A stretch of 32,000 nucleotides of DNA, from positions 390,001 through 422,000 of the forward strand of contig NZ_CP013011.1 in assembly GCF_001412615.1 (NCBI RefSeq), given 5' to 3'. This stretch comes from Pyrodictium delaneyi (GTDB lineage Archaea; Thermoproteota; Thermoprotei_A; Sulfolobales; Pyrodictiaceae). Below, piece after piece: positions 295-25,092 of this stretch (position 1 is its first letter; every line of letters starts with the position of its first letter). The notes under the pieces were generated by a model. The model saw nothing but the letters and a program-made list of their open reading frames with translations, had not been told where the DNA came from and searched no databases. The translations under genes and the position numbers were made by a program.

Positions 295-936
295 ATGGTA
301 ATCGATGAGGCCGCATTACGCGCCGCTATAACCGACGCGCTGCTACGCTCTGCCGGCCTTCCAACTCTAGCCGATGTGAAGAAGATGCTCTCGGAAGCGG
401 AATCAAAAACCACAGTAACTATTGTTACCGACGATTCTAAGTACGGGAAGCACGGAGTCGATGTAGTTAGGAATCTCCTAACAGATTATGACTTTGTGGA
501 AATTAAGGTGCTCGAAAAGTCTAGTTGGCCAGAGGATTTACCTCCACCACTCATAGTTATTGGCGGCAAGCTTGAAGGTAGGCTACTATTCTACGGGGCA
601 CCGGTCGATATACTTTCACCTATGTTCATGCTTGCTGTCGCAGCGTCATGCGGAGCATGGAAGCCTAAGACCTGCAAGGATATTAGTGAAGCAAGAGGCC
701 GAGCAAGACTTTACGTTGTACCGGGTCTACCCTGTGCACGCGCGATATACAACTCTCTGCCCATCGTGTACTGCAGTAATGAGGCCGAGCTGGAAATAGT
801 AAACGTAGAGGCATTCTATACACTCAATAAACCGCTACCAGTAAAGCAAGTCCCCACCTTTGTATCACCAAGCGGCAAGAAGCATTCCTCGACACCTAGA
901 AGCGAGTTTGAGGTGCTCAAGTGGTGGCACAGCTAA
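295..936 (+). CDS. Protein-disulfide-oxidoreductase (PDO)/glutaredoxin-like protein with two thioredoxin-fold units, both CXXC sites lost
   Basis: 213-aa ORF with a TATA-like CCTATAAAG about 45 nt upstream and GGGAGGGA before the ATG. GRLLFYGAPVDILSPMFMLAV resembles the central GIRF-G-P-G-EF segment of archaeal PDOs, and RLYVVPGLPCARAIYNSL resembles the second-unit V-TPTCPYCPRAV segment. Only one Cys is retained (PCAR), and there is no CXXC in unit 1. Confidence 0.45.
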   Translation: MVIDEAALRAAITDALLRSAGLPTLADVKKMLSEAESKTTVTIVTDDSKYGKHGVDVVRNLLTDYDFVEIKVLEKSSWPEDLPPPLIVIGGKLEGRLLFYGAPVDILSPMFMLAVAASCGAWKPKTCKDISEARGRARLYVVPGLPCARAIYNSLPIVYCSNEAELEIVNVEAFYTLNKPLPVKQVPTFVSPSGKKHSSTPRSEFEVLKWWHS

Positions 937-1056
937 GCCTACGTAGATTATCTCTTTTAAATGTCTTATTTCGAATTGCTTGCAATAAACAGTTATAGGT
1001 AGAAGTAAACACCCGTAACATAAACTCACGGGGACCCCGAAAGTACGGCCCTACTG

Positions 1057-1064
1057 GAGGTGAA
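1057..1064 (+). promoter_or_regulatory. Shine-Dalgarno site (GGAGGTGA) for the TusA-like gene
   Basis: Exact GGAGGTGA lies 6 nt upstream of ATG 1071. A similar GAGGTG lies 10 nt upstream of TTG 1953. Confidence 0.55.
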
Positions 1065-1070
1065 CAGTTA

Positions 1071-1316
1071 ATGGCACGTGTAGAAGAGTTAGACCTTACA
1101 AAGCTGACTGCTCTCTGTGGCGACTTTAGTGTCCATGTACTCAGCAAGCTTGAGGGTCTTAAGTCGGGCGAGAGACTCGTGGTAAAGGTTAGGAAAGACG
1201 ACAAAGACCTACTAGAAGCTGCGGTCTCGGCTGTTAGGGATGCAGGTATCGCTAAGCCTGTAGGAGAAGGCGAGGAAGGAGAGATATTCTACGTGATACT
1301 AGAGAAGCAGAGGTGA
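1071..1316 (+). CDS. TusA/SirA-like small sulfur-carrier-fold protein (CPxP replaced by CGDF)
   Basis: 81 aa. LDLTKLTALCGDFSVHVLSKLEGLKSGERLVVKVRKDD matches the TusA pattern LD..GL.CP.P......L..L..GE.L.V..DD. The conserved Cys is present but the flanking prolines are absent. The stop overlaps the next start (GTGA at 1313-1316). Confidence 0.6.
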   Translation: MARVEELDLTKLTALCGDFSVHVLSKLEGLKSGERLVVKVRKDDKDLLEAAVSAVRDAGIAKPVGEGEEGEIFYVILEKQR

Positions 1317-1945
1317 CAGTCTCAATGATTTCTAACACCAGTTTACTTTCTTTCACAACTAATTATGGATTCATTGTACTTCTGATTGCTGCTCTAGCAC
1401 CCTTAGTATATGTCGGTATCTATGGCTCAGCTGGCTACCGGTTTGTCTACAGCACCATTGCCCGGCTTCTAAAGGTGATACCACAAGCATCAATGCTTGA
1501 TCACCCTTCGCCCCTAGTAGGGCTAGCTGCTGCTATACTTCACACGGGCGTCATACTAGCAGTCATCGCTCATCTAGTCCTCTTCGCTGCACAATGGAAT
1601 GGAGGCCTCTACCAGCTAACACCCTCTATAGTGCAGACTGTACTCTACGCGAAGAAGACTGCAGCCATCATGATAGTCTCTTCGGCGTCCATATTAGCTG
1701 CTACCAGGCTCTACACTGGCGTACGCTTCGGTCTATTCAGCTGGAAGCACGCATGCCTCCTCGCTGGAGACTTGCTTCTAATAGCACTCGCTGCTTCCGG
1801 TCTCCTCATAAAGGCTGGCATTAACTACGTGATAGCACACGTAATCCTTGGGTATGTTGCTATAGCGTATTTCCTGATAGCGTTCTTCACCGAACATCGG
1901 CTTTACTCCCGGGTCCTCGCCGAGAAGCGTATACTAGAGGTGTAA
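1313..1945 (+). CDS. NarI/DsrM/HdrE-like polytopic membrane protein, putative di-haem cytochrome b
   Basis: 210 aa with about 5 hydrophobic helices. His77 and His87 are 10 residues apart in one helix, and His176 and His195 are 19 apart. This resembles the NarI haem-ligand pattern (H56/H66 and H187/H205). The gene is translationally coupled to the TusA-like gene. Confidence 0.5.
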   Translation: MTVSMISNTSLLSFTTNYGFIVLLIAALAPLVYVGIYGSAGYRFVYSTIARLLKVIPQASMLDHPSPLVGLAAAILHTGVILAVIAHLVLFAAQWNGGLYQLTPSIVQTVLYAKKTAAIMIVSSASILAATRLYTGVRFGLFSWKHACLLAGDLLLIALAASGLLIKAGINYVIAHVILGYVAIAYFLIAFFTEHRLYSRVLAEKRILEV

Positions 1946-1952
1946 AGCCCCA

Positions 1953-2564
1953 TTGAAACCCAAGACATTAACTATCGCAGCGATAGGTCTTATTGCCGTA
2001 GCTCTGGCTACCTCAGCTCTACTGCTAGAGCACGAGTACATCGGCGGCAGCAGTGTAGAGGCGCCAGTATCTATAAGTGTCGAGAAAGGTAAGCCCGTAG
2101 AGGCGTCCACTATGACTAGTAGCGGGAATGGCCCCGGAGACCGAATCGTTATGATACTAGGCACAGAAAGTTGCCCACATTGCCGCGCCATGATAAGCTT
2201 CTTCAAGGAGAATTTCCCGGGCCGAGCATTCTTCTGCGAGATAGCTAACACTAACTCCACCTGCAGAGCTGCCTTCAGCTTCCTAGTGCGTGGCGGAGTA
2301 ACTATGGGCGTGCCAACTATGGTTGTCTGCGATAAGAGTAGGAGCATTGTTGAAGGGATAATCATCGGCGAGCTAAAGAACGTTACCTGGTGGCAAAAGG
2401 TCTTCGAGAACGGCGTCTCTGGCAGTAACGAAACAGTCATACCTGTATATGCAGGCGAGAAACCTATAGGCACTGTTAAGATAACACAAGGCAACATGAC
2501 TAATCTTTACGACTTACTCTGCAGTGCCACACTAGCCGACGCCCAAAAGTTAGGAAGCCAATAG
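1953..2564 (+). CDS. Membrane-anchored extracytoplasmic thioredoxin/DsbA-like thiol:disulfide oxidoreductase (CPHC active site)
   Basis: TTG start with GAGGTG SD. N-terminal signal-anchor KTLTIAAIGLIAVALATSALLL. Thioredoxin-fold core IVMILGTESCPHCRAMISFF ... GVPTMVV. Confidence 0.75.
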   Translation: MKPKTLTIAAIGLIAVALATSALLLEHEYIGGSSVEAPVSISVEKGKPVEASTMTSSGNGPGDRIVMILGTESCPHCRAMISFFKENFPGRAFFCEIANTNSTCRAAFSFLVRGGVTMGVPTMVVCDKSRSIVEGIIIGELKNVTWWQKVFENGVSGSNETVIPVYAGEKPIGTVKITQGNMTNLYDLLCSATLADAQKLGSQ

Positions 2565-2592
2565 ACATAGACTCTTAGAATGGTGAAAGATC

Positions 2593-3255
2593 TTGACGGG
2601 GATTTTGGCCAAGCTTTTTGGACTAGCTGCATTGGATAGTATAAACCCTTGTACGTTCTACATCTACACAGTCCTGCTTCTCTCAGTCTCAATACGGGAG
2701 AAGAGTAGCCGGGCGGTACTAGCCACGGGTCTAGCATTCATAGCGGGCGTCTACCTTGGCTACTTGGCGCTGGGCCTCGGCATAGCAAGCGCTGTAGCAG
2801 TGCTCCCCACATGGCTTCTCGCACTAGCAGCCGCAGTCTACGGCGTCTACATCATAGTGGCTGGGCTCTACGAGTTACGGGGCAGGAGGCGTCCCGGCCC
2901 CCAGAGGCCTGGTGGGAGACTCGCGCCGAGGGCTCTGCGCACAGCTAGCCGGGTAGGCGCGTTCGGGTTAGGCTTGTTGCTCTCATTTACACTATTGCCA
3001 TGCAGCGGCGGCCCTCTCGTAGCATTCATAGCACTAGCGAGTGCCGAGGGCTATAGTGGCCTTCTAGTACTCCCCTTGTTGCTACTCTACAATCTAGTCT
3101 TCGTGGCCCCACTTATAGCAATAGGACTAGCAGCAGCTGCGGCCTACCGTGTCGAAAGAGTACAGCAAGCCATAGCTCGCGCCGCACCATACGCCTCCAT
3201 AGCAGCTGGACTAGCGCTCATAGCAGTAGCAGTATACATATACATCGCTTACTAA
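2593..3255 (+). CDS. ccdA: CcdA/DsbD-family transmembrane thiol-disulfide electron transporter
   Basis: 220 aa, polytopic. Both family-defining membrane cysteines are present (LDSINPCTFYIY in TM1 and LLPCSGGPLVAF in TM4). TTG start. Confidence 0.8.
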   Translation: MTGILAKLFGLAALDSINPCTFYIYTVLLLSVSIREKSSRAVLATGLAFIAGVYLGYLALGLGIASAVAVLPTWLLALAAAVYGVYIIVAGLYELRGRRRPGPQRPGGRLAPRALRTASRVGAFGLGLLLSFTLLPCSGGPLVAFIALASAEGYSGLLVLPLLLLYNLVFVAPLIAIGLAAAAAYRVERVQQAIARAAPYASIAAGLALIAVAVYIYIAY

Positions 3256-5397: not shown

Positions 5398-6828
5398 CTA
5401 CTCTATGTGTTCGCCAATGTAGGCGGCGATATGCCTTACCTGTATCTTGAGGCCGTATAGCTGCGAGCCTCCAGCGATGGAGTGCATACACACCGGACAC
5501 GCCGTTACTACGATTTCCGCTCCGCTCTTCTTGACGTCGTCTATCTTCCTCTTTACTGCTATCGACCAGTGCTCTGCAGTCTTCTTTATGAACTCAAGCT
5601 CCTTGTCGCTTGCTACTAGGTCCTTGCTCGAGACACCTAGCAGCTTACCCATCTGCTCTAGCATCTCCATGTTCATACAGCCTATACCGCCTCCGCCGCC
5701 ACAACAGTAGCTCTCAGCACCGTGGTGTGGTAGTTTGCGGAAGCCCTTGCTCGCCGCGCTCAGCACGAAGTTTGGCTCCTCGGTTACACCACCACGGCGT
5801 GCTAGCTGGCATGGGTCGTGCCAGGTGACCTTATCGTCGGTCTGGCGCAGCTTTAGCTTGCCCTCTTTGATTAGCTTCTCAAACAGCTCTACTATGTGTA
5901 GCACCCGGTAGCTGGGCCGGCGGCCTAGCGCCTTGGGCATCTGGAACCGTAGCCAGGGGTAGACGAAGCCACCATCAAGGAGTACCACATTCTTAGGTTC
6001 GTACTTGGATATGTCCTCGTCGAGTATCTTTATCATCTCCTTGGCTTGCTTTTGGAGACCTATTACCGCTGCTATTGGCGGACGGAAAGCTAGTGGCTTG
6101 CTTGGCAGTGTCCAGTCCAGCCCAGCCCGGTCTAGCGCCCTCATAGCACCTATTACCGCGTCTGGATAGAACATTGCATCCGCCATGTTTACTAGTAGGA
6201 AGTACTCGGCGCCCTTCTTGTCGAAAGGCAGCGGTTTACCTAGCGCCTGTTCTGCCTTCTTCATTACCTCGTTCCAGATGTACATGAAGCTTGGTATCTC
6301 TAGGAAGAGCTTCTTGCGCTCAATTACATCGAAGACAGCTATTAGTGTAGGCGCACGACCAGTCTTGGTGGCAATACTGCCTAGTATGCCTTTTATTATG
6401 AGGCCGCTGTCTATGCCGAAGGGGCAGGATACATAGCAGGCGCCACAGTTTGTACAGCGATAGACTGCTTCGACAATCTCGTCGAGGTCCTTCTCGCTTT
6501 GAGGCTTCTTGGCGTTGAGCAGTGGGCCTAGTAGCTTACCGAGTATAGTGCCCTCCTTTCTATACATGTAGCGTGCCAGCTCAGCCTTCTCTACAGGCCC
6601 ATACTTCTCGGAGACGTAGTAGTAGGGGCAGGCGGGTGCACATGCTGCACAGCCTACACAGTTCTCAAGGAAGTGTAACTTCACGGAGTCTAGTGCTGAT
6701 AGTGCCTCGGCAAGAGCCTTTTCGAGTTTGTCTGCCGGGAACCCTTCCCATGATATGTTACGTTTGACCTCTTCAAGTAGCTGCTTTACTGCGGGACTTG
6801 GAGCCATCTGTTCCATCTCATCCACCAC
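5398..6828 (-). CDS. isp2: Isp2: HdrD/DsrK/GlpC-like Fe-S protein with CCG domains (hydrogenase-associated)
   Basis: Two 4Fe-4S motifs (CVGCAACAPACP, CTNCGACYVSCP) and cysteine-rich CCG-type motifs (HDPCQLARRGG; ESYCCGGGGGIGC; ACPVCMHS). Its position after hynS-isp1 matches the Thiocapsa-type hynS-isp1-isp2 order. Confidence 0.85.
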   Translation of the reverse strand: MVDEMEQMAPSPAVKQLLEEVKRNISWEGFPADKLEKALAEALSALDSVKLHFLENCVGCAACAPACPYYYVSEKYGPVEKAELARYMYRKEGTILGKLLGPLLNAKKPQSEKDLDEIVEAVYRCTNCGACYVSCPFGIDSGLIIKGILGSIATKTGRAPTLIAVFDVIERKKLFLEIPSFMYIWNEVMKKAEQALGKPLPFDKKGAEYFLLVNMADAMFYPDAVIGAMRALDRAGLDWTLPSKPLAFRPPIAAVIGLQKQAKEMIKILDEDISKYEPKNVVLLDGGFVYPWLRFQMPKALGRRPSYRVLHIVELFEKLIKEGKLKLRQTDDKVTWHDPCQLARRGGVTEEPNFVLSAASKGFRKLPHHGAESYCCGGGGGIGCMNMEMLEQMGKLLGVSSKDLVASDKELEFIKKTAEHWSIAVKRKIDDVKKSGAEIVVTACPVCMHSIAGGSQLYGLKIQVRHIAAYIGEHIE

Positions 6829-6871
6829 CCCTAGTCAAGCGTGACGGGAAGTACCTTGTGAAACTCGGGGG

Positions 6872-7684
6872 TTAGACAAGACCTTTCTGTACACGTAGAT
6901 CGTACCATTCGTGGAGCTTGCCGTACCAGTAGCCAAAGACTATGTGCCAATACTTGCTGAATGGTAGCAGCATTAGTAGTACCTCGGCGCCGAGTATGTG
7001 TAAACCTAGTACTGTTCTATAGGTGCCAACATCCATTGTTACAGTACCAGTAGAGTGGCGAGCAGCCATGTAGCCGGTCAGCAGTATGAATAGTAGCAAG
7101 CCTAGAGAGAAGTAATCACTCCATCTCACATGGCGCAGGCCATGTATTTGCTCCATTACCTTAGTACCTATCTTAAACGCTGTACCGAGTATTGCTAGTA
7201 TAGCTAGTACATCACCATTCAGTACTACTGTTAGCGGCCCCCAGATACTGTCGACAAACTTTACCTCTATTGGTGATGTTATCGTGAGTGTTGATGTTGT
7301 AACACTTAACGGTATCCATAGCCCAGTTTCAGCTATTATCTTGTATGGGCTGAACCAGTAAGCGAAGAACGCCACGTGGTGGGCTAGCAGGAATATTAGC
7401 GGTATCACGCCTACAAGGTGCAGTGCCACCATACCCGCTAGGAAGTCGTGGGGCTTCGTCTTAATGCTGAATATTATCGGGTCTACAAATGTCCTTATCA
7501 ACCCTATAATCCATGCTCCTACGCCACGGTTACGCGGCTCGGCCTTTACCACACGGCGCCAGAAGAGCACCATCTTAGCTATCCTGTAGACTGCGCCGAA
7601 TGCAAATACAGCTATTGCTACCCAGAAGAAGTAGTATACTGCAAAGCTGTAGACATCCGTGACACTACCGCCTAAATATCCCAT
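6872..7684 (-). CDS. isp1: Isp1: NarI/HdrE-like integral membrane b-type cytochrome subunit
   Basis: 270 aa, polytopic, with intramembrane His residues (LHLVGVIPLIFLLAHH; LGLHILG; YWHIVFG). Lies between hynS and the HdrD-like gene. SD GGTGAGGTGAC at 7691-7701. Confidence 0.7.
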   Translation of the reverse strand: MGYLGGSVTDVYSFAVYYFFWVAIAVFAFGAVYRIAKMVLFWRRVVKAEPRNRGVGAWIIGLIRTFVDPIIFSIKTKPHDFLAGMVALHLVGVIPLIFLLAHHVAFFAYWFSPYKIIAETGLWIPLSVTTSTLTITSPIEVKFVDSIWGPLTVVLNGDVLAILAILGTAFKIGTKVMEQIHGLRHVRWSDYFSLGLLLFILLTGYMAARHSTGTVTMDVGTYRTVLGLHILGAEVLLMLLPFSKYWHIVFGYWYGKLHEWYDLRVQKGLV

Positions 7685-7690
7685 TAATTC

Positions 7691-7701
7691 GTCACCTCAC
7701 C
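7691..7701 (-). promoter_or_regulatory. Shine-Dalgarno site for isp1
   Basis: The reverse complement reads GGTGAGGTGAC and ends 6 nt before ATG 7684. Confidence 0.5.
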
Positions 7702-7822
7702 TTCTACTTTTACGTTTCCGGCTAACAGACTACAATGATCGTATACCCTTAGTGTATCAGACCCTTACTATCCCATATTTAGTTACAAAAATTAAGTGTT
7801 CTTAATACGTAATTAATCGTGG

Positions 7823-9253
7823 TTAGGCGCGTGTCTGCTCCTCCTTAGCCTTTTCAGCCTTTTTCTCAACCATCTTGGATACTCCGTAAGCTACAGCTGC
7901 GCCAGCAACGGCAGCGACAGCAGCACTGGCTGCAGTAGATGCTGTGCTAGGCGTCGTTGGAGCTTGTAGAGGCTTATAGAAGCCTTCAAAGCTGTCGCTG
8001 AAGCCGGGCATCGTACAGCCTATACACACGCCACCCGCTCTTGTCGGGCCACCCACACCCTCGACCCATCCAACCTTGTTCCATGGACAGTTGCTGATTG
8101 GACCCTTACAACCTACAGCGAACAGACACTTATAGTCCGGATCGCCAGGCTCCTTCCTAAAGTCGCCAGCAGCGTAGCTTCCCGCCCTGGGGCATTGTTC
8201 ATGTACCGTTGGACCAAAGATGTACTTTGGCCTCCAATACTGGTCTAGTTCAGGCAATGGTAGTAGACCCTTGGCCCATAGTATGAGATTTGCTATGACG
8301 CGAAGCTGACCATTACCGTTGGCAGGGCATCCTGGCACGGATACCGCAGGACGACAATCGGGCCTAATTTCGCCAGGCTTTAAGGAGCAACGACCGTAGA
8401 CGAAGTTACGGAATGGTTCTGCTTCTTCGAGAAGGTCTACTAGGCCTTTGAAGCCCCTAACGGGATCAGGGAAGAAGCCAACTGCGCCGGTAGGGCTAGC
8501 ACTCCAGCCCTTACCAGTCCAAGTCTGGAATAGGTCGTATCCTAGTTTCTTCATGAAATCTACTTCTACAACCTTGTTTGCCGGTATACCGCCATAGCAT
8601 GCACAGTTACCAACAGATATTACTGCTACGGCTCGTGGTAGGAGGCGGCGCATCCACTCTGTACATGTTATTGGTTTGCCGTTCTCCTCGCCTATATAAC
8701 AGAAGTAGTCGCTATGCGGCGGTCCACCCGCCTTTTCATCTATGGGGAAACTACCTTCAAGTACAAGCACGAATGGGTCGAGTTTACCCTGTTCGGCGAG
8801 CTTTAGTATATCAATTGGGCTTGTGAGGAGGAGACCTGGGTTATAACCTAGGTCTAGGAATGCTTTCAATGTCTTCTTGAGTGGATCGTCATCAGGGAGT
8901 TTCTCTACGAGAGCGGCCAGCTCCTCCGGGCTCATTTCGACGAGCTTCTTGACGTACTCGGGTGTCTCTTCGCCCCAGCTAAGCATCACAGTCTCGTGGA
9001 ATAGGAGCTTAACTGTACCAGGACCAGCTATATGGCTATAACCACCAAGTACCTCAACTAGGTCAGGCTTAGTAGCCTGGATTAATGCCGTAGTATTGCC
9101 AGCACAATCTTGTGCCTCAAACCATACAATGTTTATACCACCCGACTTAACCTCAGCTATTGCTTTCTTTATCAGCTCGTCCCAGTTGAGGCTGGCAAAG
9201 AATGCTGCCGTTCCTGTGAGCTTTAGGAAGTCTCTACGGGAGAGCTGGACCAT
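7823..9253 (-). CDS. hynS: Membrane-bound group-1 [NiFe]-hydrogenase small subunit with Tat signal and C-terminal membrane anchor
   Basis: Twin-arginine signal MVQLSRRDFLKLTG. Small-subunit motifs VGNCACYGG, PGCPANG, HEQCPR, CLFAVGCKGPISNCPWN and GGVCIGCTMPGF. C-terminal hydrophobic AAVAAVAGAAVAYGV followed by a Lys/Glu tail. Confidence 0.95.
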   Translation of the reverse strand: MVQLSRRDFLKLTGTAAFFASLNWDELIKKAIAEVKSGGINIVWFEAQDCAGNTTALIQATKPDLVEVLGGYSHIAGPGTVKLLFHETVMLSWGEETPEYVKKLVEMSPEELAALVEKLPDDDPLKKTLKAFLDLGYNPGLLLTSPIDILKLAEQGKLDPFVLVLEGSFPIDEKAGGPPHSDYFCYIGEENGKPITCTEWMRRLLPRAVAVISVGNCACYGGIPANKVVEVDFMKKLGYDLFQTWTGKGWSASPTGAVGFFPDPVRGFKGLVDLLEEAEPFRNFVYGRCSLKPGEIRPDCRPAVSVPGCPANGNGQLRVIANLILWAKGLLPLPELDQYWRPKYIFGPTVHEQCPRAGSYAAGDFRKEPGDPDYKCLFAVGCKGPISNCPWNKVGWVEGVGGPTRAGGVCIGCTMPGFSDSFEGFYKPLQAPTTPSTASTAASAAVAAVAGAAVAYGVSKMVEKKAEKAKEEQTRA

Positions 9254-9295
9254 GAATGTATCCCCCTACTTATTTTTCCCGACACTGAAACTCTC

Positions 9296-9325
9296 CAAGG
9301 ATAAATGTTAATAAATATATTCGAA
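9296..9325 (-). promoter_or_regulatory. Candidate TATA box/promoter for hynS
   Basis: The reverse strand reads ATATATTTATTAACATTTAT, 45-70 nt upstream of ATG 9253, inside a 426-bp A/T-rich divergent intergenic region. Confidence 0.35.
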
Positions 9326-9679
9326 GGCGGGAAACCAGGGAATCTTTAACACCCAGAAATGCTAACTTAATACTTGTCGTGGAGTCGTATAAAGTAGCTT
9401 ATCCGAACAAGTATCAAAAAGCAACATTAATCTACTTGGCAATAGCTTGATGTATACCAACCACGTAATTAATCTACGTTTGCATTCGGTAAACCCCGCC
9501 TTACCTCACGGCCCTTATAGCTGGAGGGCTCGGACCCCGTAGGCGCGTAACACTCCACATCCAGACACAGATTTACACTCCAACACCTCCTACCTATTTA
9601 CTACTTTAGCCATTCTTTTTACGACTTATCCGGGGCAGGACTGCGTAGCGTTCCTTACTCTACTCGCGACAAGTAGTTA

Positions 9680-10123
9680 ATGTATATGATAGACGAGCAT
9701 AGACAGGGAGGAACGATTCCCTTGTCAAGCCCCAAGGAAAGGAGACGCGCATTAGTAGAGGGGCTAAGGAGCTTCCTTCGGGCTAGTAATCAAGTGGCAG
9801 AAGCAGTAGACAATATACGTCGTGAGTTCCTCGAAACTCTTGAAGAAGCTCTAGGTATTGACTTAACTCCAGAAAAACGGATGCTCCGAAGCCTCTACAG
9901 CTTTAACCCACCAGCACAGCCCAGTTTGGAGGAGTTACGTGAACTCATAGCACGAAGCATGGGGCTGAGTAATGGAGTACAACTCGAAGAGTACCTCCGT
10001 AGCCTCGGCAAGACCGGAAAAACTAGTAGCATTAGTCCCGAATCCCCTGGTGAAAGGCGGCAGCGGCATCCTAGAACTAAGCCTAGAACTCATAGGGAAG
10101 AATCCGGAAGCCAGGATGGGTAA
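9680..10123 (+). CDS. Hypothetical helical protein, first gene of the hydrogenase accessory operon (3' end uncertain)
   Basis: Protein-like up to about ...GVQLEEYLRSLGK (near nt 10015). It then becomes an Arg/Pro/Ser-rich tail typical of out-of-frame reading. It overlaps the next ORF by 152 nt. Confidence 0.4.
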   Translation: MYMIDEHRQGGTIPLSSPKERRRALVEGLRSFLRASNQVAEAVDNIRREFLETLEEALGIDLTPEKRMLRSLYSFNPPAQPSLEELRELIARSMGLSNGVQLEEYLRSLGKTGKTSSISPESPGERRQRHPRTKPRTHREESGSQDG

Positions 10124-10481
10124 ATGCTTAATTATCGACGGGTCAATGGATGCATTGTCGCTCATCGATGAAGCGACTAGTCGCAACGTAGATCTAGTAA
10201 TAATTCTAGGTGCCGTTCATACCGAAGGCCGCGCCCCCGGCATATATATGCGCATAATCGAACCACGTGACGCTAGGAAAATGAATCCATTACAGCTCAC
10301 CAGGGAATTATGGATGAATCTAACAGGTAGCCTTGGGTTAGACGACTATGCAGCAGCATTGAGCCTGCTCTGGAACCGAGCCTTTATCCTGGCTGAATGT
10401 GAGCCCGGAGATACGGATGATCCAGAGGGGGCGTGCAAGAAACTTGCAAGAGAGTGGATCCAGCAAGAATGTGAAACATAG
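9972..10481 (+). CDS. HybD/HyaD-like hydrogenase maturation protease paralogue lacking all three metal-binding residues (pseudo-protease)
   Basis: Core aligns with E. coli HybD: KLVALVPNPLVKGGSG / ILVLGVGNILLTDEAIG; CLIIDGS / VEILDGG; DLVIILGAVHTEGRAPG / HLIIADAIVSKKNAPG; MNPLQL / ISPHQL. The E16, D62 and H93 equivalents are Gly, Gly and Leu. Confidence 0.6.
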   Translation: MEYNSKSTSVASARPEKLVALVPNPLVKGGSGILELSLELIGKNPEARMGKCLIIDGSMDALSLIDEATSRNVDLVIILGAVHTEGRAPGIYMRIIEPRDARKMNPLQLTRELWMNLTGSLGLDDYAAALSLLWNRAFILAECEPGDTDDPEGACKKLAREWIQQECET

Positions 10482-11028
10482 GATACTCCTACTAGGTATA
10501 GGTAATACACTCCATGGAGATGATGGTGTTGGTTATTGTCTAGCGTATGGGATCAAATATTGTGGCGGTATAGAAGGTGCAGACATAGCTACTATTCAAG
10601 AGCTAAACCCAGGTCACATAACTATGCTAGATGGATATGAAACAGTAGTATTCATAGACGCATACATATCCGATGATATGCCCGAATCAGCACGAATAGC
10701 CGTCCTTGAACTGGATCCATCACGGCTCCGCGAGGACGAGGTCGTGGCCCTAGTGCAGGAAATGGATCCACATAGTCTTAACCCTATCCGGCTAATGATA
10801 CTGTCCTACGCTGCACAATTGTTTAAGGGACGAGCTTATCTGATCGGTATAAAGCCCTACCGTATAGAGTTTTCTGGAGGACTTAGCAAAGATATCAAAA
10901 AGGCACTTCCACAAGCACTGGAAGAATTACGCCGCATACTGGCTAAGCTTGGTGCAAACATGAAGGCTGACATAAACTGTGTTATAAACTGGGTTGATAG
11001 GAACTGCGATAAACCGCTTCTAGATTAG
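10471..11028 (+). CDS. hybD: [NiFe]-hydrogenase maturation endopeptidase (HybD/HyaD/HoxM family)
   Basis: RILLLGIGNTLHGDDGVG, VVFIDAY and DPHSLNP retain the canonical Asp/Asp/His triad. I prefer GTG 10471 as the start (VKHRILLLGIGN), which overlaps the upstream stop by 11 nt. The track ORF start at 10399 adds a non-conserved leader. Confidence 0.85.
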   Translation: MKHRILLLGIGNTLHGDDGVGYCLAYGIKYCGGIEGADIATIQELNPGHITMLDGYETVVFIDAYISDDMPESARIAVLELDPSRLREDEVVALVQEMDPHSLNPIRLMILSYAAQLFKGRAYLIGIKPYRIEFSGGLSKDIKKALPQALEELRRILAKLGANMKADINCVINWVDRNCDKPLLD

Positions 11029-11149
11029 CTTAAGGCATTTGTCTTAAATTGACGCACCAGATACCACATACATCATGTTAAGCATAATAGTGTCACTAAT
11101 GCACAAGATTTAGAAGTTGGAGAGATGATTCAGCAACGGGGAGCCATAT

Positions 11150-11563
11150 ATGTCAAGTAACAATTGTACGAAAAAGTCTGAAGAAATAATAAATTTCGTA
11201 ACATGGCGTATGGACAATATGCCCGACTATAAAGATTGGGTCATGTCTATGCTCCGCGCCTGGGGTGCTATGCTTAACGAAGCCAACAATCAGCGTTCGC
11301 TTCTACCCTTTGCATCGTTGGCACTCGCTCATCTAGGCGTTGGCCTCACCGCTACCTATGTGATAGAGGGTGCTAGTCCAGAGGAGGCAATTAAAAAAGC
11401 CAAGGAGGAGTTATGTGCTGTTTACATGGCTAGTCTCGAGTTACTTGACCGAGCATTTCAGCAAGGCAAAATAATGGAGATAATAGAAGAGTCAATGAAG
11501 GAGGCCGAGGATGCAGTTCAGAGTGAAGGCATAGACTCCATAAAAGAGGGAGGAGAGAGCTAG
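11150..11563 (+). CDS. Hypothetical protein, last gene of the accessory operon
   Basis: 137-aa ORF preceded by GGGGAG 7 nt upstream of the ATG. Coding-like composition. I recognised no motif. Confidence 0.45.
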   Translation: MSSNNCTKKSEEIINFVTWRMDNMPDYKDWVMSMLRAWGAMLNEANNQRSLLPFASLALAHLGVGLTATYVIEGASPEEAIKKAKEELCAVYMASLELLDRAFQQGKIMEIIEESMKEAEDAVQSEGIDSIKEGGES

Positions 11564-11595
11564 CTTCCATCTATCGTCTTGAGTGTTGTTATCTC

Positions 11596-13920
11596 TCATA
11601 TTTCTCCAAGCTTCGCTGCCGCCACTAGGAGCTGGCCTACTGCCACCCCGCCATCCCCAGGCGGGAGGCGTCGCGGTATACGAACCTCTAGCCCATAGTC
11701 ACTTAACACCTGCCTAGCCCCCTGGACTATGAATGTGTTTACCGCCGCTCCACCAGAGATGTAGACAGGACCGTCTAGTCCCCGGGCTGCTCTAGCTGCC
11801 GCTTCTCCTAGAGCCCTGCCTAGGCCACGCTGAATCGTGACAGCGATATCCCTAGCAGGGAGTCTGTCAATATTCTCGAGCACCCATCGTAGCAGCCCGG
11901 GAGTATCCACTACAAGACGACCATCTAGACTGAGCAACCCTGGGGTGTAGCCGTGGTCACGGCCTCCCCGCGCCGCAGCTTCTAGCTTCATCGCTGGCTC
12001 GCCCTCGTAATCACGGCGCCAAGCTATTCTTAGGAGCGCTGCTAACGCGTCAAGTGTACGGCCCATACTTGTGGTTAGGGGTGCCTTCCCGAAAGCTGCT
12101 AGCCGGTAGCTTACCCGGGCCTCGGTCTCGCCGTGGGGTAGCTTGTCTCTCGATAATAGGCCGTAGCGCCGCAGCACATCCAGCGCCTCCTCCTCGTCGA
12201 GACCGGAAGCCTGCATGAGACCTATGAGGGCCCGGACCGGCCACTTTGCTGCAGCGTCACCACCGGGGAGTCTGAAGGGGTAGAGACTGGCCACGCGGGT
12301 GAAGCTGCTGTAGCTTGCTACGAGTACCTCGCCTCCCCAGATCGTGGAGTCTACACCGTACCCTGTACCGTCGATTGTTATCGCCACCTTCTCCTCGCCG
12401 GGAGGTACGCGGTCCTCGAGCATAGCTGCTGCTGCGTGGGCGTGATGGTGCTGCACCTCCACCAACTCGGCGCCATATTCTTCTGCTAGCCTCGCTGCTA
12501 GACCGCGGTTATGGTACCCTGGATGCATGTCCATGGCTACTATTCTGGGTTTTAGGGAGTAGACTTCTACAAACCAGCGTAACTCGCGTTCCAGCTCTTC
12601 CACTTGGCCCGGTTCATCCATGTCGCCTATGTACTGGGTGGGCACTACTTTGTCCTCGAAGGCTACTGCACCTGCCGTTTGAAGCTCTGCGCCTACCGCA
12701 ACCATCTCGGGCAGCTCCGCGGGAGCGTATAGCCACATGGGGGCATAGCCGCGGGCGCGGCGAAGGAAGACCAGCTCCCCATCGGTGTAGCGTAACACGC
12801 TATCATCGACGCGGTGTACTATCTCCCGGTCATGGGCCACCACATAGTCTGCTATGCCGCATAGGTGGGTGAAGACGCACTTCAGGGTGGTGCACATGGG
12901 GTAGCCTGTCTCGTTCCCACTCGTCATGATGAGGAAGCCATCGCGGACCTGCTCGAGGAGGAGCGCCTGGAACCCCGTGTAGGGCAGCATCACCCCTATG
13001 GTGTCTAGGCCGGGGGCTACGAGCTCAGAGACAGGTGAGCCAGGGCGCTTGGGGAGGAGGAGTATCGGCCTTTCTGCCGACTGTAGTACCTCGCAGGCGC
13101 CGGGCGGCGGCTCAGCGATCATCTCGACTACGCTGCAGTCCCGGGCCATTAGGGCGAATGGTTTCGAGGGGCGGCGTTTGCGGCGCCTCAGTTCCTCGAC
13201 CACGTCGTCACGGGTGGCGAGGGCTGCTAGGTGGAAGCCCCCGACACCCTTTATCGCCAGTATGTAGCCCTCCTCAATCTTCTCGGCCGCCCACTCCACG
13301 GGGTCCGGCACGTCGAGCCGTTTGCCGTCCATCGTGTAGACGTACGTCCTTGGACCACACTTGGGGCAACTTATCCCCTGGGCGTGGAACCGGCGGAGGT
13401 TCGCGGGATCCTCGTAGTCGCGGCGACACTCCGTGCAGAGAGGATACTTCTTCATGGCTGTGTTCTCGCGGTCGTAGGGTACCGTGTACATCATAGAGAA
13501 CCTCGGACCGCACCAGGCGCAGCTATTCCAGTAGTACCGGTAGAACCTGGTAGAGGGGTCGTGTATCTCGTGGAGGCAATCACTGCATATACCGAAGTCG
13601 GGGGGTATCATGCTGCGCTTGCTTTTCCGCCGCTCGCTCTTCCTTATAGTGAAGCTGCCCAGCCCCTGGGGCTCAGCCTCCTCTATCTCTAGCTCCTCTA
13701 TGCGGGCTGGCGGCGGCCTCTCCCGGTAGAGGCCCTTGATGAAGCTCGCGAGCTGGTCAGGTGGACCTTCGACGTAGATCTCTACCTCGCTACCACCAAG
13801 GTTCAGGACGTAGCCTGCGAGGCCGCGGGAGACAGCAAGCCGGTATATGAATGGGCGGAAGCCCACTCCCTGCACTATGCCGGTTACGCGGAGCCGCAGA
13901 GCCCTCCTAGCTGTTGCCAA
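11596..13920 (-). CDS. hypF: Carbamoyltransferase HypF
   Basis: Acylphosphatase domain (VTGIVQGVGFRPF). Two zinc-finger pairs (CSDCLHEI...CAWCGPRF; CTECRRDY...CPKCGPR). YrdC-like domain (ILAIKGVGGFHLA; KRRPSKPFALM). Kae1-like C-terminal domain. TTG start. Confidence 0.97.
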   Translation of the reverse strand: MATARRALRLRVTGIVQGVGFRPFIYRLAVSRGLAGYVLNLGGSEVEIYVEGPPDQLASFIKGLYRERPPPARIEELEIEEAEPQGLGSFTIRKSERRKSKRSMIPPDFGICSDCLHEIHDPSTRFYRYYWNSCAWCGPRFSMMYTVPYDRENTAMKKYPLCTECRRDYEDPANLRRFHAQGISCPKCGPRTYVYTMDGKRLDVPDPVEWAAEKIEEGYILAIKGVGGFHLAALATRDDVVEELRRRKRRPSKPFALMARDCSVVEMIAEPPPGACEVLQSAERPILLLPKRPGSPVSELVAPGLDTIGVMLPYTGFQALLLEQVRDGFLIMTSGNETGYPMCTTLKCVFTHLCGIADYVVAHDREIVHRVDDSVLRYTDGELVFLRRARGYAPMWLYAPAELPEMVAVGAELQTAGAVAFEDKVVPTQYIGDMDEPGQVEELERELRWFVEVYSLKPRIVAMDMHPGYHNRGLAARLAEEYGAELVEVQHHHAHAAAAMLEDRVPPGEEKVAITIDGTGYGVDSTIWGGEVLVASYSSFTRVASLYPFRLPGGDAAAKWPVRALIGLMQASGLDEEEALDVLRRYGLLSRDKLPHGETEARVSYRLAAFGKAPLTTSMGRTLDALAALLRIAWRRDYEGEPAMKLEAAARGGRDHGYTPGLLSLDGRLVVDTPGLLRWVLENIDRLPARDIAVTIQRGLGRALGEAAARAARGLDGPVYISGGAAVNTFIVQGARQVLSDYGLEVRIPRRLPPGDGGVAVGQLLVAAAKLGEI

Positions 13921-13994
13921 CGCGAACTACACCCTAGAGGCGGAAAGGATGGTAGAAAACGCGGAAATAGAACAACTCCTTAGATATGGTGATG

Positions 13995-15056
13995 CTAGCA
14001 TATACGTGGGACTATTTCGCCGCTGGGAGGCTCTAGTATGCGGACTCCGCCAGCCACACTCTTGAGGAGTACTCTACCGGCATGCCTGGGGTCCTTGGGC
14101 TCGTAGACTTCGCCTATTATCGTTGCCTCTTTGAAGCCTAGGCTATGCATGTACTCAATTATCTCCTCGGCCCTGGATGGCTCCACAGCTAGTACTGCTG
14201 CGCCCTCGCTCGCTAGGCTGAAGGGGTCTACGCCTAGCATCTCGGCGTACTCGCGTACCTGGGGCCGGACTGGCGTCTTTACCTCATCTATCACTATAAC
14301 GGTCTTAGTCTTCTCAGCCCAGTTATTGAGCAACATTGCGAGGCCGCCGCGGGTTGGGTCGCCCGCCCCGTGTATGCTGTCCCGATACTTCTCTAGAAGC
14401 GGGAGCATCAGCCTTGTGAGCGGCTTGACGTCGCTTTCTACTCCGAGGTCTACACCGAGAGACTGCTGCGCGGCTAGTATGGCTGCACCGTGATCGCCTA
14501 AGTAGCCGGAGACTATTATCTTGTCGCCGGGCCGTATCTCTGTGTCCACTATGGGCTTACCCTCGACTATACCTATGCCCATCGATGCTATTACTATGCC
14601 GTCCAGTTGGCCCTTAGGCATGACCTTGAAGTCGCCACCTACTAGAGCTACCTTCTCCTCGGCCAATGTACGTATGAAGCTCCCCATTATCTTTTTGAAG
14701 TCCTCTATCGGGAAACCCTCCTCTACAACGACCCCGTCAAGCACTGCCAGAGGCTTGGCACCCACCATCAAGAGGTCGTTTATAGTACCGGAGGCGGCTA
14801 GTTTGCCGAGATCGCCACCCGGGAAGAATATTGGCTTTACCGTGTAGGTGTCAACTGTTACCGCTATGTAGCGGTTTTCGCCAGCAGGTATAAGCGCTGC
14901 ATCGTCTAGAATATCTAGCCCTGTACCTCCCTCAACCCTCCAAAGCTCCGGAGGCACGCTCTGAACTATTAGGTTCTTTACTAGCTCCTCGGTCTCCTTG
15001 CCTCCGGAGCCGTGAGCCAGAGTTATGAACTTCCAAAGACGAACATACCATGTCAT
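13995..15056 (-). CDS. hypE: Hydrogenase maturation protein HypE
   Basis: PurM-like ATP-binding fold (LAHGSGGKET) and the invariant C-terminal PRIC motif. Confidence 0.97.
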   Translation of the reverse strand: MTWYVRLWKFITLAHGSGGKETEELVKNLIVQSVPPELWRVEGGTGLDILDDAALIPAGENRYIAVTVDTYTVKPIFFPGGDLGKLAASGTINDLLMVGAKPLAVLDGVVVEEGFPIEDFKKIMGSFIRTLAEEKVALVGGDFKVMPKGQLDGIVIASMGIGIVEGKPIVDTEIRPGDKIIVSGYLGDHGAAILAAQQSLGVDLGVESDVKPLTRLMLPLLEKYRDSIHGAGDPTRGGLAMLLNNWAEKTKTVIVIDEVKTPVRPQVREYAEMLGVDPFSLASEGAAVLAVEPSRAEEIIEYMHSLGFKEATIIGEVYEPKDPRHAGRVLLKSVAGGVRILEPPSGEIVPRIC

Positions 15057-15089
15057 CAGTGTACACCTCTAAGATGCACTCCGGATTTA

Positions 15090-15362
15090 TTAGAGGAGCT
15101 TCTCTATCCCTAGGAGTTTCTCGATTTCTTCAGCTCTTTTCTCAAGCTCAGATATGAGTTCGTCAAACACCTGTATCATCTCTTTGGCACGTTCTTCGTT
15201 AATCTTTTCTATTATCACGCCGGCATGCACTATGACCAAGTCACCAGGCTTCAAATCCTCTATTGCACCGGCATCTACCTCCCGCAGAACGCCGTCTCCA
15301 AAATCTACTACAGCTATATTACCCTTTACATCTTTTACTTCAGCTGGTATGCCCAGACACAT
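15090..15362 (-). CDS. hypC: Hydrogenase assembly chaperone HypC
   Basis: N-terminal MCLGIPAEV motif. 90 aa. Confidence 0.95.
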   Translation of the reverse strand: MCLGIPAEVKDVKGNIAVVDFGDGVLREVDAGAIEDLKPGDLVIVHAGVIIEKINEERAKEMIQVFDELISELEKRAEEIEKLLGIEKLL

Positions 15363-15416
15363 AATTTATACACCTCGCGAAGACACATGCGTGGGATTTA
15401 GAAAAACGGTACGATC

Positions 15417-16628
15417 TCAAATTATGTTAAGGCTACGAGCTATCTCTTCGGCTAGGCCGCCACCACCGAACCGAGCCCAGACAGCGCATGCTCCTTCACT
15501 GCTTACCATACATGGCCCATAGGGTGTACCAGGTGTACATGTTTTCATGAAATGGGGACAGTCAGTAGGCTTAACTATACCAAGCGTTACCTCAGCGCAA
15601 CGACAGCCCGGCGGAAGGTCATACTTCCACTCATCAGGTGTAAGCTCCTTTATGCCGTACTGTTTAAACGCATCCACATGACTGTACTTATCGCGGAACG
15701 CTAGGCCACTGCGAGGAACAAAGCCTATACCACGCCATGCTGCATCAATTTCTTCGCAGCATTCTGACATTATCCTCTGCGCACGTATATTACCCTCCCA
15801 TGTCGCTACGCGTTTATACTCGTTCACTATCCTAGGTCTGCCCTCTATATGCTGGCGCAGTATTTCGAGTATTGCTAAGAGCACATCAATGGGTTCAAAG
15901 CCTGCTACTACTGTCGGTATCCCGTACTCGTCTACAACGAACTTCCACGACTTAACACCTATTACTGTCGATACGTGCCCTGGCGCGATTACACCCCTTA
16001 TCGGATTGTCCTTATGAGTCTCAAAAGCGAACCTCATTATAGGCGGTGTTAGACGATGGATATTCATTATCTTGAGGTTATTGGGTACTAGCCCGGCTAC
16101 TACGGGGCTCGCTGTCGCCGGAACAGTAGTCTCAAAGCCTACTGCAAGGAATAAGCTGGGCTTCTTGTCGCGGCGCGCCATCCGGATGGCATCGAGAATG
16201 CTGTATACTACGATGACGTCACCGCCTGCAGCCCTAGCCTCCTCTAGGCTTCTAATGTCTCGACCGCGTTTGCCCGAGCCAGGTAAACGGTATGCATCAC
16301 CATAAGTGTAAACACGGATACCTTCCATGCTTAGCTTTATAGCAATGTCTATGTAGTAGGCTGGCGTTATACAAACAGGACATCCAGGGCCAGCTACGAT
16401 CTCAACCTCTGGCGGCATGAGACTACGTATACCATAATGTGTAACTGTATACTCGTGAGTACCACAGAAATCCATTATCTTTATAGGTGTCTGGCCTATA
16501 CGCTGAACGGCTACTGGTGCCAGTTTATGAATCTTTTCTACAATTCTGCGAGCAAGCTTCTGATTTCGAAGCCTCTCTTCAAGCGCCTTAAGGAGGTGTG
16601 ACCTTGCTGATTGCCGCTCCACCGCCAA
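15417..16628 (-). CDS. hypD: Hydrogenase maturation protein HypD
   Basis: FCGTHE, GPGCPVC, GFETT and PGHVS motifs, plus a C-terminal Cys cluster (CPHFMKTC...CMVSSEGAC). TTG start. Confidence 0.97.
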   Translation of the reverse strand: MAVERQSARSHLLKALEERLRNQKLARRIVEKIHKLAPVAVQRIGQTPIKIMDFCGTHEYTVTHYGIRSLMPPEVEIVAGPGCPVCITPAYYIDIAIKLSMEGIRVYTYGDAYRLPGSGKRGRDIRSLEEARAAGGDVIVVYSILDAIRMARRDKKPSLFLAVGFETTVPATASPVVAGLVPNNLKIMNIHRLTPPIMRFAFETHKDNPIRGVIAPGHVSTVIGVKSWKFVVDEYGIPTVVAGFEPIDVLLAILEILRQHIEGRPRIVNEYKRVATWEGNIRAQRIMSECCEEIDAAWRGIGFVPRSGLAFRDKYSHVDAFKQYGIKELTPDEWKYDLPPGCRCAEVTLGIVKPTDCPHFMKTCTPGTPYGPCMVSSEGACAVWARFGGGGLAEEIARSLNII

Positions 16629-24303: not shown

Positions 24304-25092
24304 TTACTGCCGCTGCGGGCCGGCGGCCGCCGCTTTCGCTTTCGAGGCCTCTACGTGGTCTAGGTATAGCTTGTAGAGGCGGAGTAGCTCCTCCTCCGCC
24401 TCCCCGGGGTCCCCGTAGACGAGCACCGCCTCGTCTACCAGGGTTTTCGCGAGCGCCGGGCTAACCCCCAGGTCCAGTACCACGAGGTCTACGGGCACGC
24501 CTAGCTCGTCCTCGAGCACAGCTTGGAGCCTGCCCACCTCGAGCATGCTCCGTGGCCTACGCCCAAGCCTAACCGCCAGATCCACGTCCCTGCCGCAGCC
24601 GCTGCGCGCTAGCGAGCCGAACAGGAGGACCAAGCGTAGTCCGAGGCGCTCCGCTGCCCTGCGTATCCGCTGCTTCACCTCGCCGATACAGGGGTCGTCC
24701 CGGGCTAGCTCCGCGAGCCGCGCGACCACATGGGGCGTCTTCTCGGCTATCTCCCTGAACGCCTCCATCTCGAGCTCCCTGTCTATCTCGGCGTACATGT
24801 GGACGAGTATATTACGGAACCCCGCGAGCCCTTCAAGGAACTCCGCCAGGTCGCTGCCGAGCCCAGCGCGTCTGGCTAGCCACCTCGCCAGCTCGCGGTA
24901 GCTACCCGGCTTCACCCCTCTCTCCCTAGAGGCGAGCACTGCAGCGAAGTCGAGGATGCACTGCGCTATGAGCTGGGCTAGCCTCTCTACCGCGTATACC
25001 CTCTCCTCGCCGCGCTCATACTCCCTTAGCGCGTCTACGAACTCCTCGTAGTAGCCCCTAATCATGCTGAGAAGCTCCTGGAGCCTCGACAC
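24304..25092 (-). CDS. Fused HepT(DUF86, HEPN)-MNT(minimal nucleotidyltransferase) protein
   Basis: The N-terminal half has the HEPN Rx4HxY motif (GFRNILVHMY, nt 24793-24816). The C-terminal half has an MNT-type GS...DxD motif (LLFGSLARSGCGRDVDLAV, nt 24580-24618) and VPVDLVVLD. It is one uninterrupted 262-aa ORF. Confidence 0.8.
   Translation of the reverse strand: MSRLQELLSMIRGYYEEFVDALREYERGEERVYAVERLAQLIAQCILDFAAVLASRERGVKPGSYRELARWLARRAGLGSDLAEFLEGLAGFRNILVHMYAEIDRELEMEAFREIAEKTPHVVARLAELARDDPCIGEVKQRIRRAAERLGLRLVLLFGSLARSGCGRDVDLAVRLGRRPRSMLEVGRLQAVLEDELGVPVDLVVLDLGVSPALAKTLVDEAVLVYGDPGEAEEELLRLYKLYLDHVEASKAKAAAAGPQRQ

Follow-up and report, generated by a model that had tools for sequence, protein, structure and literature searches.

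A probable non-catalytic relative of hydrogenase maturation proteases, encoded with a helical partner in a hydrogenase locus of Pyrodictium delaneyi

Introduction

For Escherichia coli and Thermococcus the maturation of [NiFe] hydrogenases has been charted well, but barely for the crenarchaeal membrane-bound enzymes that power H2/sulfur respiration at about 100 °C. The present analysis concerns a 32,000-nucleotide stretch of the Pyrodictium delaneyi genome (contig NZ_CP013011.1, positions 390,001 to 422,000; hereafter the window), in which three overlapping open reading frames of the forward strand, designated UP, ORF1 and ORF2, lie between two blocks of hydrogenase genes. ORF2 resembles a canonical hydrogenase maturation protease, and ORF1, directly upstream of it, had been described in an initial annotation as a catalytically dead HybD-type paralogue, with the suggestion of co-expression with the active protease in fixed stoichiometry and of a possible role as chaperone or specificity factor for the C-terminal tail of the large subunit. 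The locus raises the question of what ORF1 is, and with which partner it acts.

It is proposed here, with a probability of about 0.62, that ORF1 encodes a non-catalytic member of the HybD/HycI/HoxM superfamily which, together with UP, forms a two-part accessory factor, most likely HypY/HypZ, with a putative docking or holdase role. Both ORF1 and ORF2 were found where the initial annotation had placed them; UP, the frame that overlaps the beginning of ORF1, had been missed. No description of a ligand-less protease paralogue (pseudo-protease) in hydrogenase maturation was found in the literature.

Results

Relationship of ORF1 to the maturation proteases

An exhaustive profile search of 1.8 billion proteins found 31 cluster representatives of the ORF1 family at 50% identity. 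A 37-sequence alignment of this family (A3), compared by hhalign with a set of 17 maturation proteases, gave a score of 28.3 (P=8.6e-4) over 125 collinear columns. The reversed profile scored 12.9, and none of 20 column-shuffled profiles exceeded a score of 17.4 or a length of 38 columns, so that the likeness between ORF1 and the proteases exceeds chance. The signal appeared only after the family had been widened, since two shallow alignments (A1 and A2, with an effective number of sequences of 1.8) were matched with a probability of only 0.7%. Of the five segments that had been aligned by eye in the initial annotation, the profile-profile alignment reproduced four (KLVALVPNPLV, CLIIDGS, DLVIILGAVHTEGRAPG and AFILAECEP); the pairing of MNPLQL with ISPHQL was not reproduced. 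Furthermore, one protein that the search of 1.8 billion proteins returned with the ORF1-family profile, P0043 (E=4.8e-6), also passes the protease family TIGR00072 over its full length (47.9 bits against a cut-off of 47.45, E=1.3e-12), with E=5.7e-3 against PF01750. Judged by these scores, P0043 is a homologue that bridges the ORF1 family and the maturation proteases.

The AlphaFold2 model of ORF1 is confident, with a predicted local distance difference test score (pLDDT) of 88 and a predicted template-modelling score of 0.83. Foldseek returned for it five HybD/HycI structures (5ija, 5zby, 5ttx, 2e85 and 2i8l) at E of about 1e-4 and probabilities of 0.97-1.0, the template-modelling (TM) scores to these being only moderate (0.45-0.54). 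Its top match was 3gaa, a Thermoplasma protein of unknown function (E=3.3e-5), which we take to be PAC2-like, and Pth and pyrrolidone carboxyl peptidase also scored. These matches, as well as the failure of ORF1 to match Pfam directly, would fit a convergence at the level of the fold, with ORF1 belonging to a different family that has the phosphorylase/hydrolase-like fold, for instance the PAC2-type assembly chaperones. This explanation is considered very unlikely. The target-normalised TM scores are 0.50-0.54 for HybD/HycI against 0.36 for 3gaa, and a second model, made independently for the fused homologue P0044 (pLDDT 86), has HybD/HycI structures in the first four ranks, among them E. coli HybD (1cfz, 2kml) and HycI (2e85). 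In addition, both the profile link and the P0043 bridge lead specifically to maturation proteases, and the sole NCBIfam match of ORF1 at E<=1, to hupD, lies at the collinear position.

Several results nevertheless weigh against the proposed assignment of ORF1 and its role. ORF1 itself matched no Pfam family at E<=10, so that the PF01750 match which the initial annotation had put forward as a check failed. Its hupD match (TIGR00140) reaches 13.6 bits (E=0.05), the cut-off being 151.8, which leaves ORF1 below every curated family threshold. Searches of PDB sequences with ORF1 (phmmer) and of the same sequences with the family profiles A1 and A3 (hmmsearch) found no HybD, the returns being chance matches to enoyl-CoA hydratase, annexin and EF-hand proteins. 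The Foldseek TM scores are modest overall (0.37-0.54), the PAC2-like protein, Pth and pyrrolidone carboxyl peptidase scoring comparably for the ORF1 model. As to the role, the complex of protease and large subunit in Salmonella needs the metallocofactor (PMC5299533), and a ligand-less ORF1 may therefore dock differently. Metallosphaera has hoxM without hypY or hypZ (PMC7325606), and a pair of the UP/ORF1 type is thus dispensable for some group 1g enzymes. The probable identity of UP and ORF1 with HypY and HypZ, as encoded in the hydrogenase operon of Acidianus ambivalens, is based on gene order and size only. Since direct searches fail, the homology of ORF1 to the proteases needs the profile-profile alignment, the bridging sequence and the fold comparison together. 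These three lines, with the ligand loss and the purifying selection described below, support the initial view of ORF1 as a dead HybD paralogue and its predicted place in the hydrogenase maturation endopeptidase superfamily, in a branch that lacks the ligands.

Loss of the metal ligands and conserved residues of ORF1

Alignment with E. coli HybD as master placed Thr14-Asp15-Glu16 of HybD opposite a three-residue gap between Val27 and Lys28 of ORF1. The column of Asp62 is occupied by Gly80 and that of His93 by Asn116, after which Leu-Thr-Gly is inserted, and SLGLDDY of ORF1 aligns with QLGLADV of HybD. The absence of all three ligands, as claimed in the initial annotation, is thus borne out, with no acidic residue or histidine at the ligand columns; the residues it named (Gly, Gly and Leu) need to be replaced by a deletion, Gly80 and Asn116. 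Across the 37 family members the two tabulated ligand columns hold G/S/F/T/I/A and N/S/G, and the loop at the position of Glu16 has only sporadic acidic residues, none of them conserved. With the triad lost, ORF1 presumably can neither recognise the nickel-loaded precursor in the manner of HybD nor cut it, and nickel-dependent cleavage would be absent.

A single residue, Gly119, is invariant throughout the 37 members. The segment around it, LW-x-NLTGSL-x-LDDY (window 10308-10349, ORF1 residues 113-126), gave weak PDB matches to EF-hand calcium-binding loops (E 0.008-0.02). A calcium site of EF-hand type in NLTGSLxLDDY was rejected, position 1 of the loop being Trp or Pro and not acidic and the similarity being limited to one motif.

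Four cysteines stand out, a nearly invariant C155 and three others (C52, C143 and C167) that most of the 37 members share. C52 and C167 are either both present or both absent in all full-length members, and therefore follow the pattern of a structural disulfide. Structural disulfides are common in hyperthermophilic Crenarchaeota, and the conserved cysteines of ORF1 are tentatively read in this way. The same four cysteines could instead build a new site, ORF1 being a metal handler, e.g. a nickel chaperone, which offsets a missing HypB in Pyrodictium. P. delaneyi is indeed reported to be without HypB (PMC5556600), and homologues of ORF1 adjoin hypA and a ParA/CbiA-type hypB in two related loci (Stetteria and L014), as well as a CbiMQO transporter in L014. 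We regard this role as unlikely, given the disulfide-like co-occurrence of C52 and C167, the lack of this pair in the fused branch P0046-P0050, the lack of any His-rich or CxxC motif in ORF1, and the presence of a HypB-type ATPase besides the ORF1 homologue in Stetteria and L014.

ORF1 as a live gene

The ratio of nonsynonymous to synonymous substitution rates (dN/dS) of ORF1 is 0.14-0.21 in the part that does not overlap its neighbours, at a synonymous rate near or above 1, and is similar to that of ORF2 (0.12-0.18). ORF1 is therefore a live gene under purifying selection. The loss of all catalytic ligands and the lack of a matching Pfam model might also be expected of a protease gene that was duplicated and is decaying, ORF1 then being an untranslated remnant. 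Besides the selection on it, the confident structural model, the intact reading frame in at least 15 loci across families (22-74% identity) and the spread of the family over 31 clusters all speak against decay, and this alternative, which the initial annotation had itself named as fatal to its proposal, is effectively refuted.

ORF2, the canonical protease

ORF2 scores above the NCBIfam TIGR00072 cut-off (68.2 against 47.45 bits) and matches PF01750 at E=1.2e-4 with 22.4 bits, just below the Pfam gathering score of 23. Along its whole length it can be aligned with PDB 5ttx (E=1.9e-6) as well as with E. coli HybD, and it carries Asp18, Asp63 and His101 at the columns of Glu16, Asp62 and His93. 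By its profile scores and ligands ORF2 is a true hydrogenase maturation protease, as had been recognised at the outset. Its overlap with ORF1 is real, but the extent given initially (11 nt, from a GTG start at 10471) is uncertain. That GTG is present in the window only, and a TTG at 10444, with a 38-nt overlap, is found at the same position in the window, L001, L002 and L003 and is the called start in L001 and L002.

In the alignment of the crenarchaeal ORF2 family (A2), a C-terminal extension of about 30 aa (window 10930-11028) that is absent in E. coli HybD carries conserved Cys170 and Cys179 and ends in a near-invariant KPLLD. Cys23 and Cys31, close to the ligand loop, are invariant in the family.

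UP, the fused forms and the overlapping frames

The fused homologues P0044, P0047, P0048, P0050 and P0187, from Pyrobaculum and Thermofilum metagenome-assembled genomes, carry a helical N-terminal extension of 70-110 aa before the ORF1 domain. UP is homologous to this N-terminal domain (hhalign P=1.6e-5, probability 79%), the alignment stopping near the start of strand 1. No informative fold match was obtained by Foldseek for the N-terminal helical domain of the P0044 model. On this homology ORF1 is the second half of a predicted two-part accessory factor with UP, a helical protein of about 110 aa.

In 14 split loci, i.e. the window and 13 others, UP and the ORF1 homologue are separate genes; a narrower profile (A5) led to 6 related loci. 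In each of the 14, UP comes first and ORF1 follows in the +1 frame, overlapping UP without any spacer (by 152 nt in the window), and UP runs on for 6-50 unconserved codons into ORF1. The recurrence of this arrangement in the other 13 loci excludes a sequencing-error frameshift in the window. Selection changes frame within about 10 nt at the junction, which in the window contains ccGGAAAAActa. UP has dN/dS of 0.07-0.23 over residues 1-97 and above 1 in the tail, so that its last 36 or so codons, overlapping ORF1, are unconstrained. The last conserved UP residues (LEEYLRSLG) show dN/dS of 0.06-0.34, and the ORF1 leader encoded by the same stretch 0.2-5.6, with values above 0.6 in 5/6 pairs. From EKLVALVPN on, the ORF1 frame has 0.08-0.27 and the UP tail more than 1.

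Such a clean switch from frame A to A+1, with an exact offset in every split locus and an unconstrained UP tail and ORF1 leader, is what would be expected if a programmed +1 ribosomal frameshift at the junction (about 10009-10022, GGA-AAA-A) made UP-ORF1 one protein, as in the Pyrobaculum and Thermofilum fusions. Fused and split forms also occur in fairly close relatives (P0044 and P0045, 43% identity), and a run of five or six A residues lies at the junction in the window, L011, L014 and L015. The run is lacking in L001-L009 and L012, the junction sequences differ, and no slippery motif is conserved. A start codon in the ORF1 frame stands 0-18 codons before strand 1 in 14/14 split loci (ATG in 10), and in 8 loci the ATG is made by GAT-G or AAT-G within the conserved L-x-D/N-G motif of UP, which looks like selection for an internal start. 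Moreover, ORF1 of Stetteria stands alone with its own ATG directly after hypF, and a fixed offset is equally expected if the ORF1 start lies inside the constrained coding region of UP. The junction thus shows neither a conserved shift-prone site nor the absence of an independent downstream start by which programmed frameshifting would be recognised, and recoding appears improbable. Were it true, Pyrodictiaceae and their relatives would produce from two frames the same two-domain HypY-HypZ protein for which Pyrobaculum uses one. Such +1 recoding would be rare for archaea; here it would be embedded in hydrogenase maturation and might set the ratio of short to fused product. Because every split locus has a start in the ORF1 frame, eight of them with a motif-formed ATG, and ORF1 of Stetteria stands alone, UP and ORF1 of the split lineages (Pyrodictiaceae, Acidilobaceae, Hyperthermus and others) are read as two genes overlapping in the +1 frame, with ORF1 starting at its own codon embedded in the end of UP. 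An overlapping +1 gene pair this unusually stable, alternating with a fused form, offers a clean case for the study of gene fission, fusion and possible recoding in archaea.

Gene order in the window and in related loci

The genes of the window are listed in Table 1. The hynS block lies upstream of UP and is divergent from it, and the block from hypF to hypD lies downstream and is convergent with the three overlapping genes. The closest homologues of ORF1 and ORF2 are from Pyrodictium and related metagenomes.

Table 1. Genes of the hydrogenase locus in the window (positions 5398 to 16628).
Feature	Position	Strand	Length and remarks
isp2, HdrD-like Fe-S/CCG protein	5398-6828	-	Pfam Fer4_8 + CCG
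isp1-like membrane protein	6872-7684	-	270 aa; no Pfam match; named from its position between hynS and isp2
hynS, [NiFe] hydrogenase small subunit	7823-9253	-	Twin-arginine translocation (Tat) signal, RRDFLK motif in translation; PF14720 (E=8.7e-24), PF01058
UP, HypY-like helical protein	9680-10123	+	147 aa; conserved coding part 9680 to ~10015
ORF1, HypZ-like, predicted HybD/HycI fold, no metal ligands	9972-10481	+	169 aa; constrained coding part from ~10017 (EKLVALVPN)
UP/ORF1 junction	10009-10022	+	Selection switches from frame A (UP) to A+1 (ORF1)
ORF2, canonical [NiFe]-hydrogenase maturation endopeptidase (HoxM/HybD type)	10444 (TTG) or 10471 (GTG) to 11028	+	TIGR00072; frame open 10363-11028
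DN, conserved protein	11150-11563	+	137 aa; no Pfam or NCBIfam match; syntenic with UP-ORF1-ORF2
hypF	11596-13920	-	Pfam
hypE	13995-15056	-	Pfam
hypC	15090-15362	-	Pfam
hypD	15417-16628	-	Pfam

In the survey of related loci that the initial annotation had suggested, UP-ORF1, or its fusion, is followed by the protease in the window, L001-L009, L010 and L011. No protease adjoins the ORF1 homologue in four further loci, where its neighbours are hypF, hypA/hypB or hypE/hypD. In Hyperthermus butylicus (L012) the pair lies beside hypF-hypC-hypD; in Stetteria (L013) the order is hypD-C-F-ORF1-hypA-hypB; in L014 the pair follows hypA-hypB next to CbiMQO, with a protease 2.5 kb off; and in L015 the order is hypC-hypE-UP-ORF1-hypD. 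The tandem proposed initially is therefore found in the first group of loci and not in the second, and a fixed-stoichiometry partnership with the protease is not general, although ORF1 of the window does lie directly upstream of the protease and overlaps it. The UP/ORF1 pair is always inside hyp or hydrogenase clusters and usually, not always, beside a protease, its constant partners being the Hyp machinery and, for ORF1, UP. In L010 and L011 the large subunit HynL carries a tail of 15-24 aa after DPCxxCxxH, and a protease step consequently exists there.

A Ni/Co transporter operon of CbiM/CbiQ/CbiO type (6439-8913) converges on the UP-ORF1 pair in L014, where the pair stands behind hypA and a ParA-type hypB; this placement hints at a link to nickel supply. 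The ORF of 137 aa (DN) travels with UP, ORF1 and ORF2 in L001-L006 (tblastn). It follows the protease in the window and in L001-L003; in L004-L006 it directly precedes UP. It may be a fourth component of the module. Between the protease and this ORF a hemerythrin-domain gene is found in L001 (3480-4433), L003 (10896-11906) and L002 (7364-7639); it is not present in the window, where the two are only 121 nt apart.

No gene for a hydrogenase large subunit is present anywhere within the 32-kb window, and a hidden copy was rejected on this basis. This agrees with the P. delaneyi genome paper, in which hynS and hynL are far apart, hynL being about 270 locus tags away (PMC5556600). A hynS-isp1-isp2 operon without a large-subunit gene is also found in P. 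occultum (L003). The small subunit of P. delaneyi is said in the same paper to be without FeS domains (PMC5556600), whereas HynS of the window matches PF14720, the small-subunit C-terminal domain (Table 1).

Elsewhere in the window, a single ORF of 262 aa on the reverse strand (24304-25092) combines a HepT-like RNase domain with an MNT-like nucleotidyltransferase domain and looks like a fused toxin-antitoxin pair. Four ORFs of about 200-220 aa form a run on the forward strand (295-3255) and have no Pfam match except a weak holin-like one for 2593-3255; a similar unannotated gene run occupies the equivalent place in P. occultum (L003, 762-3550).

Discussion

Possible role of ORF1 and UP

HybD recognises the nickel-loaded precursor of the large subunit (Theodoratou et al. 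2000, as cited in PMC12134894). ORF1 would have kept the alpha/beta/alpha fold of these proteases and lost all three residues that bind the nickel of the substrate, and it has probably retained a docking function on the large-subunit precursor or the Hyp complex. In the mechanism proposed, the ORF1 domain would neither sense nickel nor cut; it would dock on the precursor or on the Hyp proteins that handle the precursor. Together with the helical module of UP it would serve as a holdase or adaptor during cofactor insertion, ahead of the true protease, and ORF2 would then remove the C-terminal tail of the large subunit. If so, two genes listed as 'unknown' in such clusters gain a structural identity, as a ligand-less protease copy and a helical module that are fused in some lineages. 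The hypothesis is thereby opened that a non-catalytic protein of protease fold acts as an assembly factor, like pseudoenzymes elsewhere.

Comparison with known systems

ORF1 shares the alpha/beta/alpha fold and the order of secondary-structure elements with the HybD/HyaD/HycI/HoxM proteases (PF01750, TIGR00072; 1cfz, 2e85, 5ija, 5zby, 5ttx), with which its profile is collinear over about 125 residues, and its gene, like theirs, belongs to clusters for hydrogenase maturation, with ORF2 immediately downstream in the window. Unlike HybD-type proteases, ORF1 has no equivalent of the triad Glu/Asp16, Asp62 and His93, and it has conserved cysteines, an obligatory helical N-terminal partner or domain, and the invariant motif W-x-N-L-T-G-S-L-x-x-D-D-Y, which is new with respect to these proteases and includes Gly119.

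The PAC2-type proteasome assembly chaperones (2p90, 2wam, 5un0) have the same broad three-layer fold as ORF1 and are non-enzymatic assembly helpers. Their Foldseek E-values are comparable to those of HybD for the ORF1 model, but they rank 17th or lower for the P0044 model. They are also far larger than ORF1 (about 240-290 aa), with target-normalised TM scores of only 0.27-0.38, and they have neither a sequence-profile link to ORF1 nor a hydrogenase context.

The closest counterpart by gene order is the hydrogenase operon of A. ambivalens, given as hypDCE-hypYZ-hoxM, in which HypY (70 aa) and HypZ (143 aa) are both listed as 'unknown' and HoxM has 163 aa (PMC8551704, PMC5461723). In Thermoproteus tenax a gene labelled hypZ, a 'maturation factor', is apparently TTX_0029, and TTX_0029 and TTX_0034 are listed as two maturation proteases (PMC3189178). 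Named Acidianus or Thermoproteus proteins were absent from the named homology matches, many matches carrying no name, and the named members of the ORF1 family that were found are all annotated as 'hypothetical protein'. The order and sizes typical of HypY/HypZ, i.e. a protein of about 70-110 aa and then one of about 140-170 aa near hypE or hoxM, were found in the window, L015 and L011 (74, 161 and 179 aa for the three genes of L011). The small ORF, the ORF of about 143 aa and the protease that follow hypE in A. ambivalens correspond in size and order to UP-ORF1-ORF2, and to hypE-UP-ORF1 in L015. The passages on these genes in the A. ambivalens and T. tenax papers describe neither the ligand loss, nor the fusion with HypY, nor the +1 overlap. 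ORF1 may therefore be regarded as a new ligand-less variant of a known superfamily, within a family already glimpsed in these operons and never characterised.

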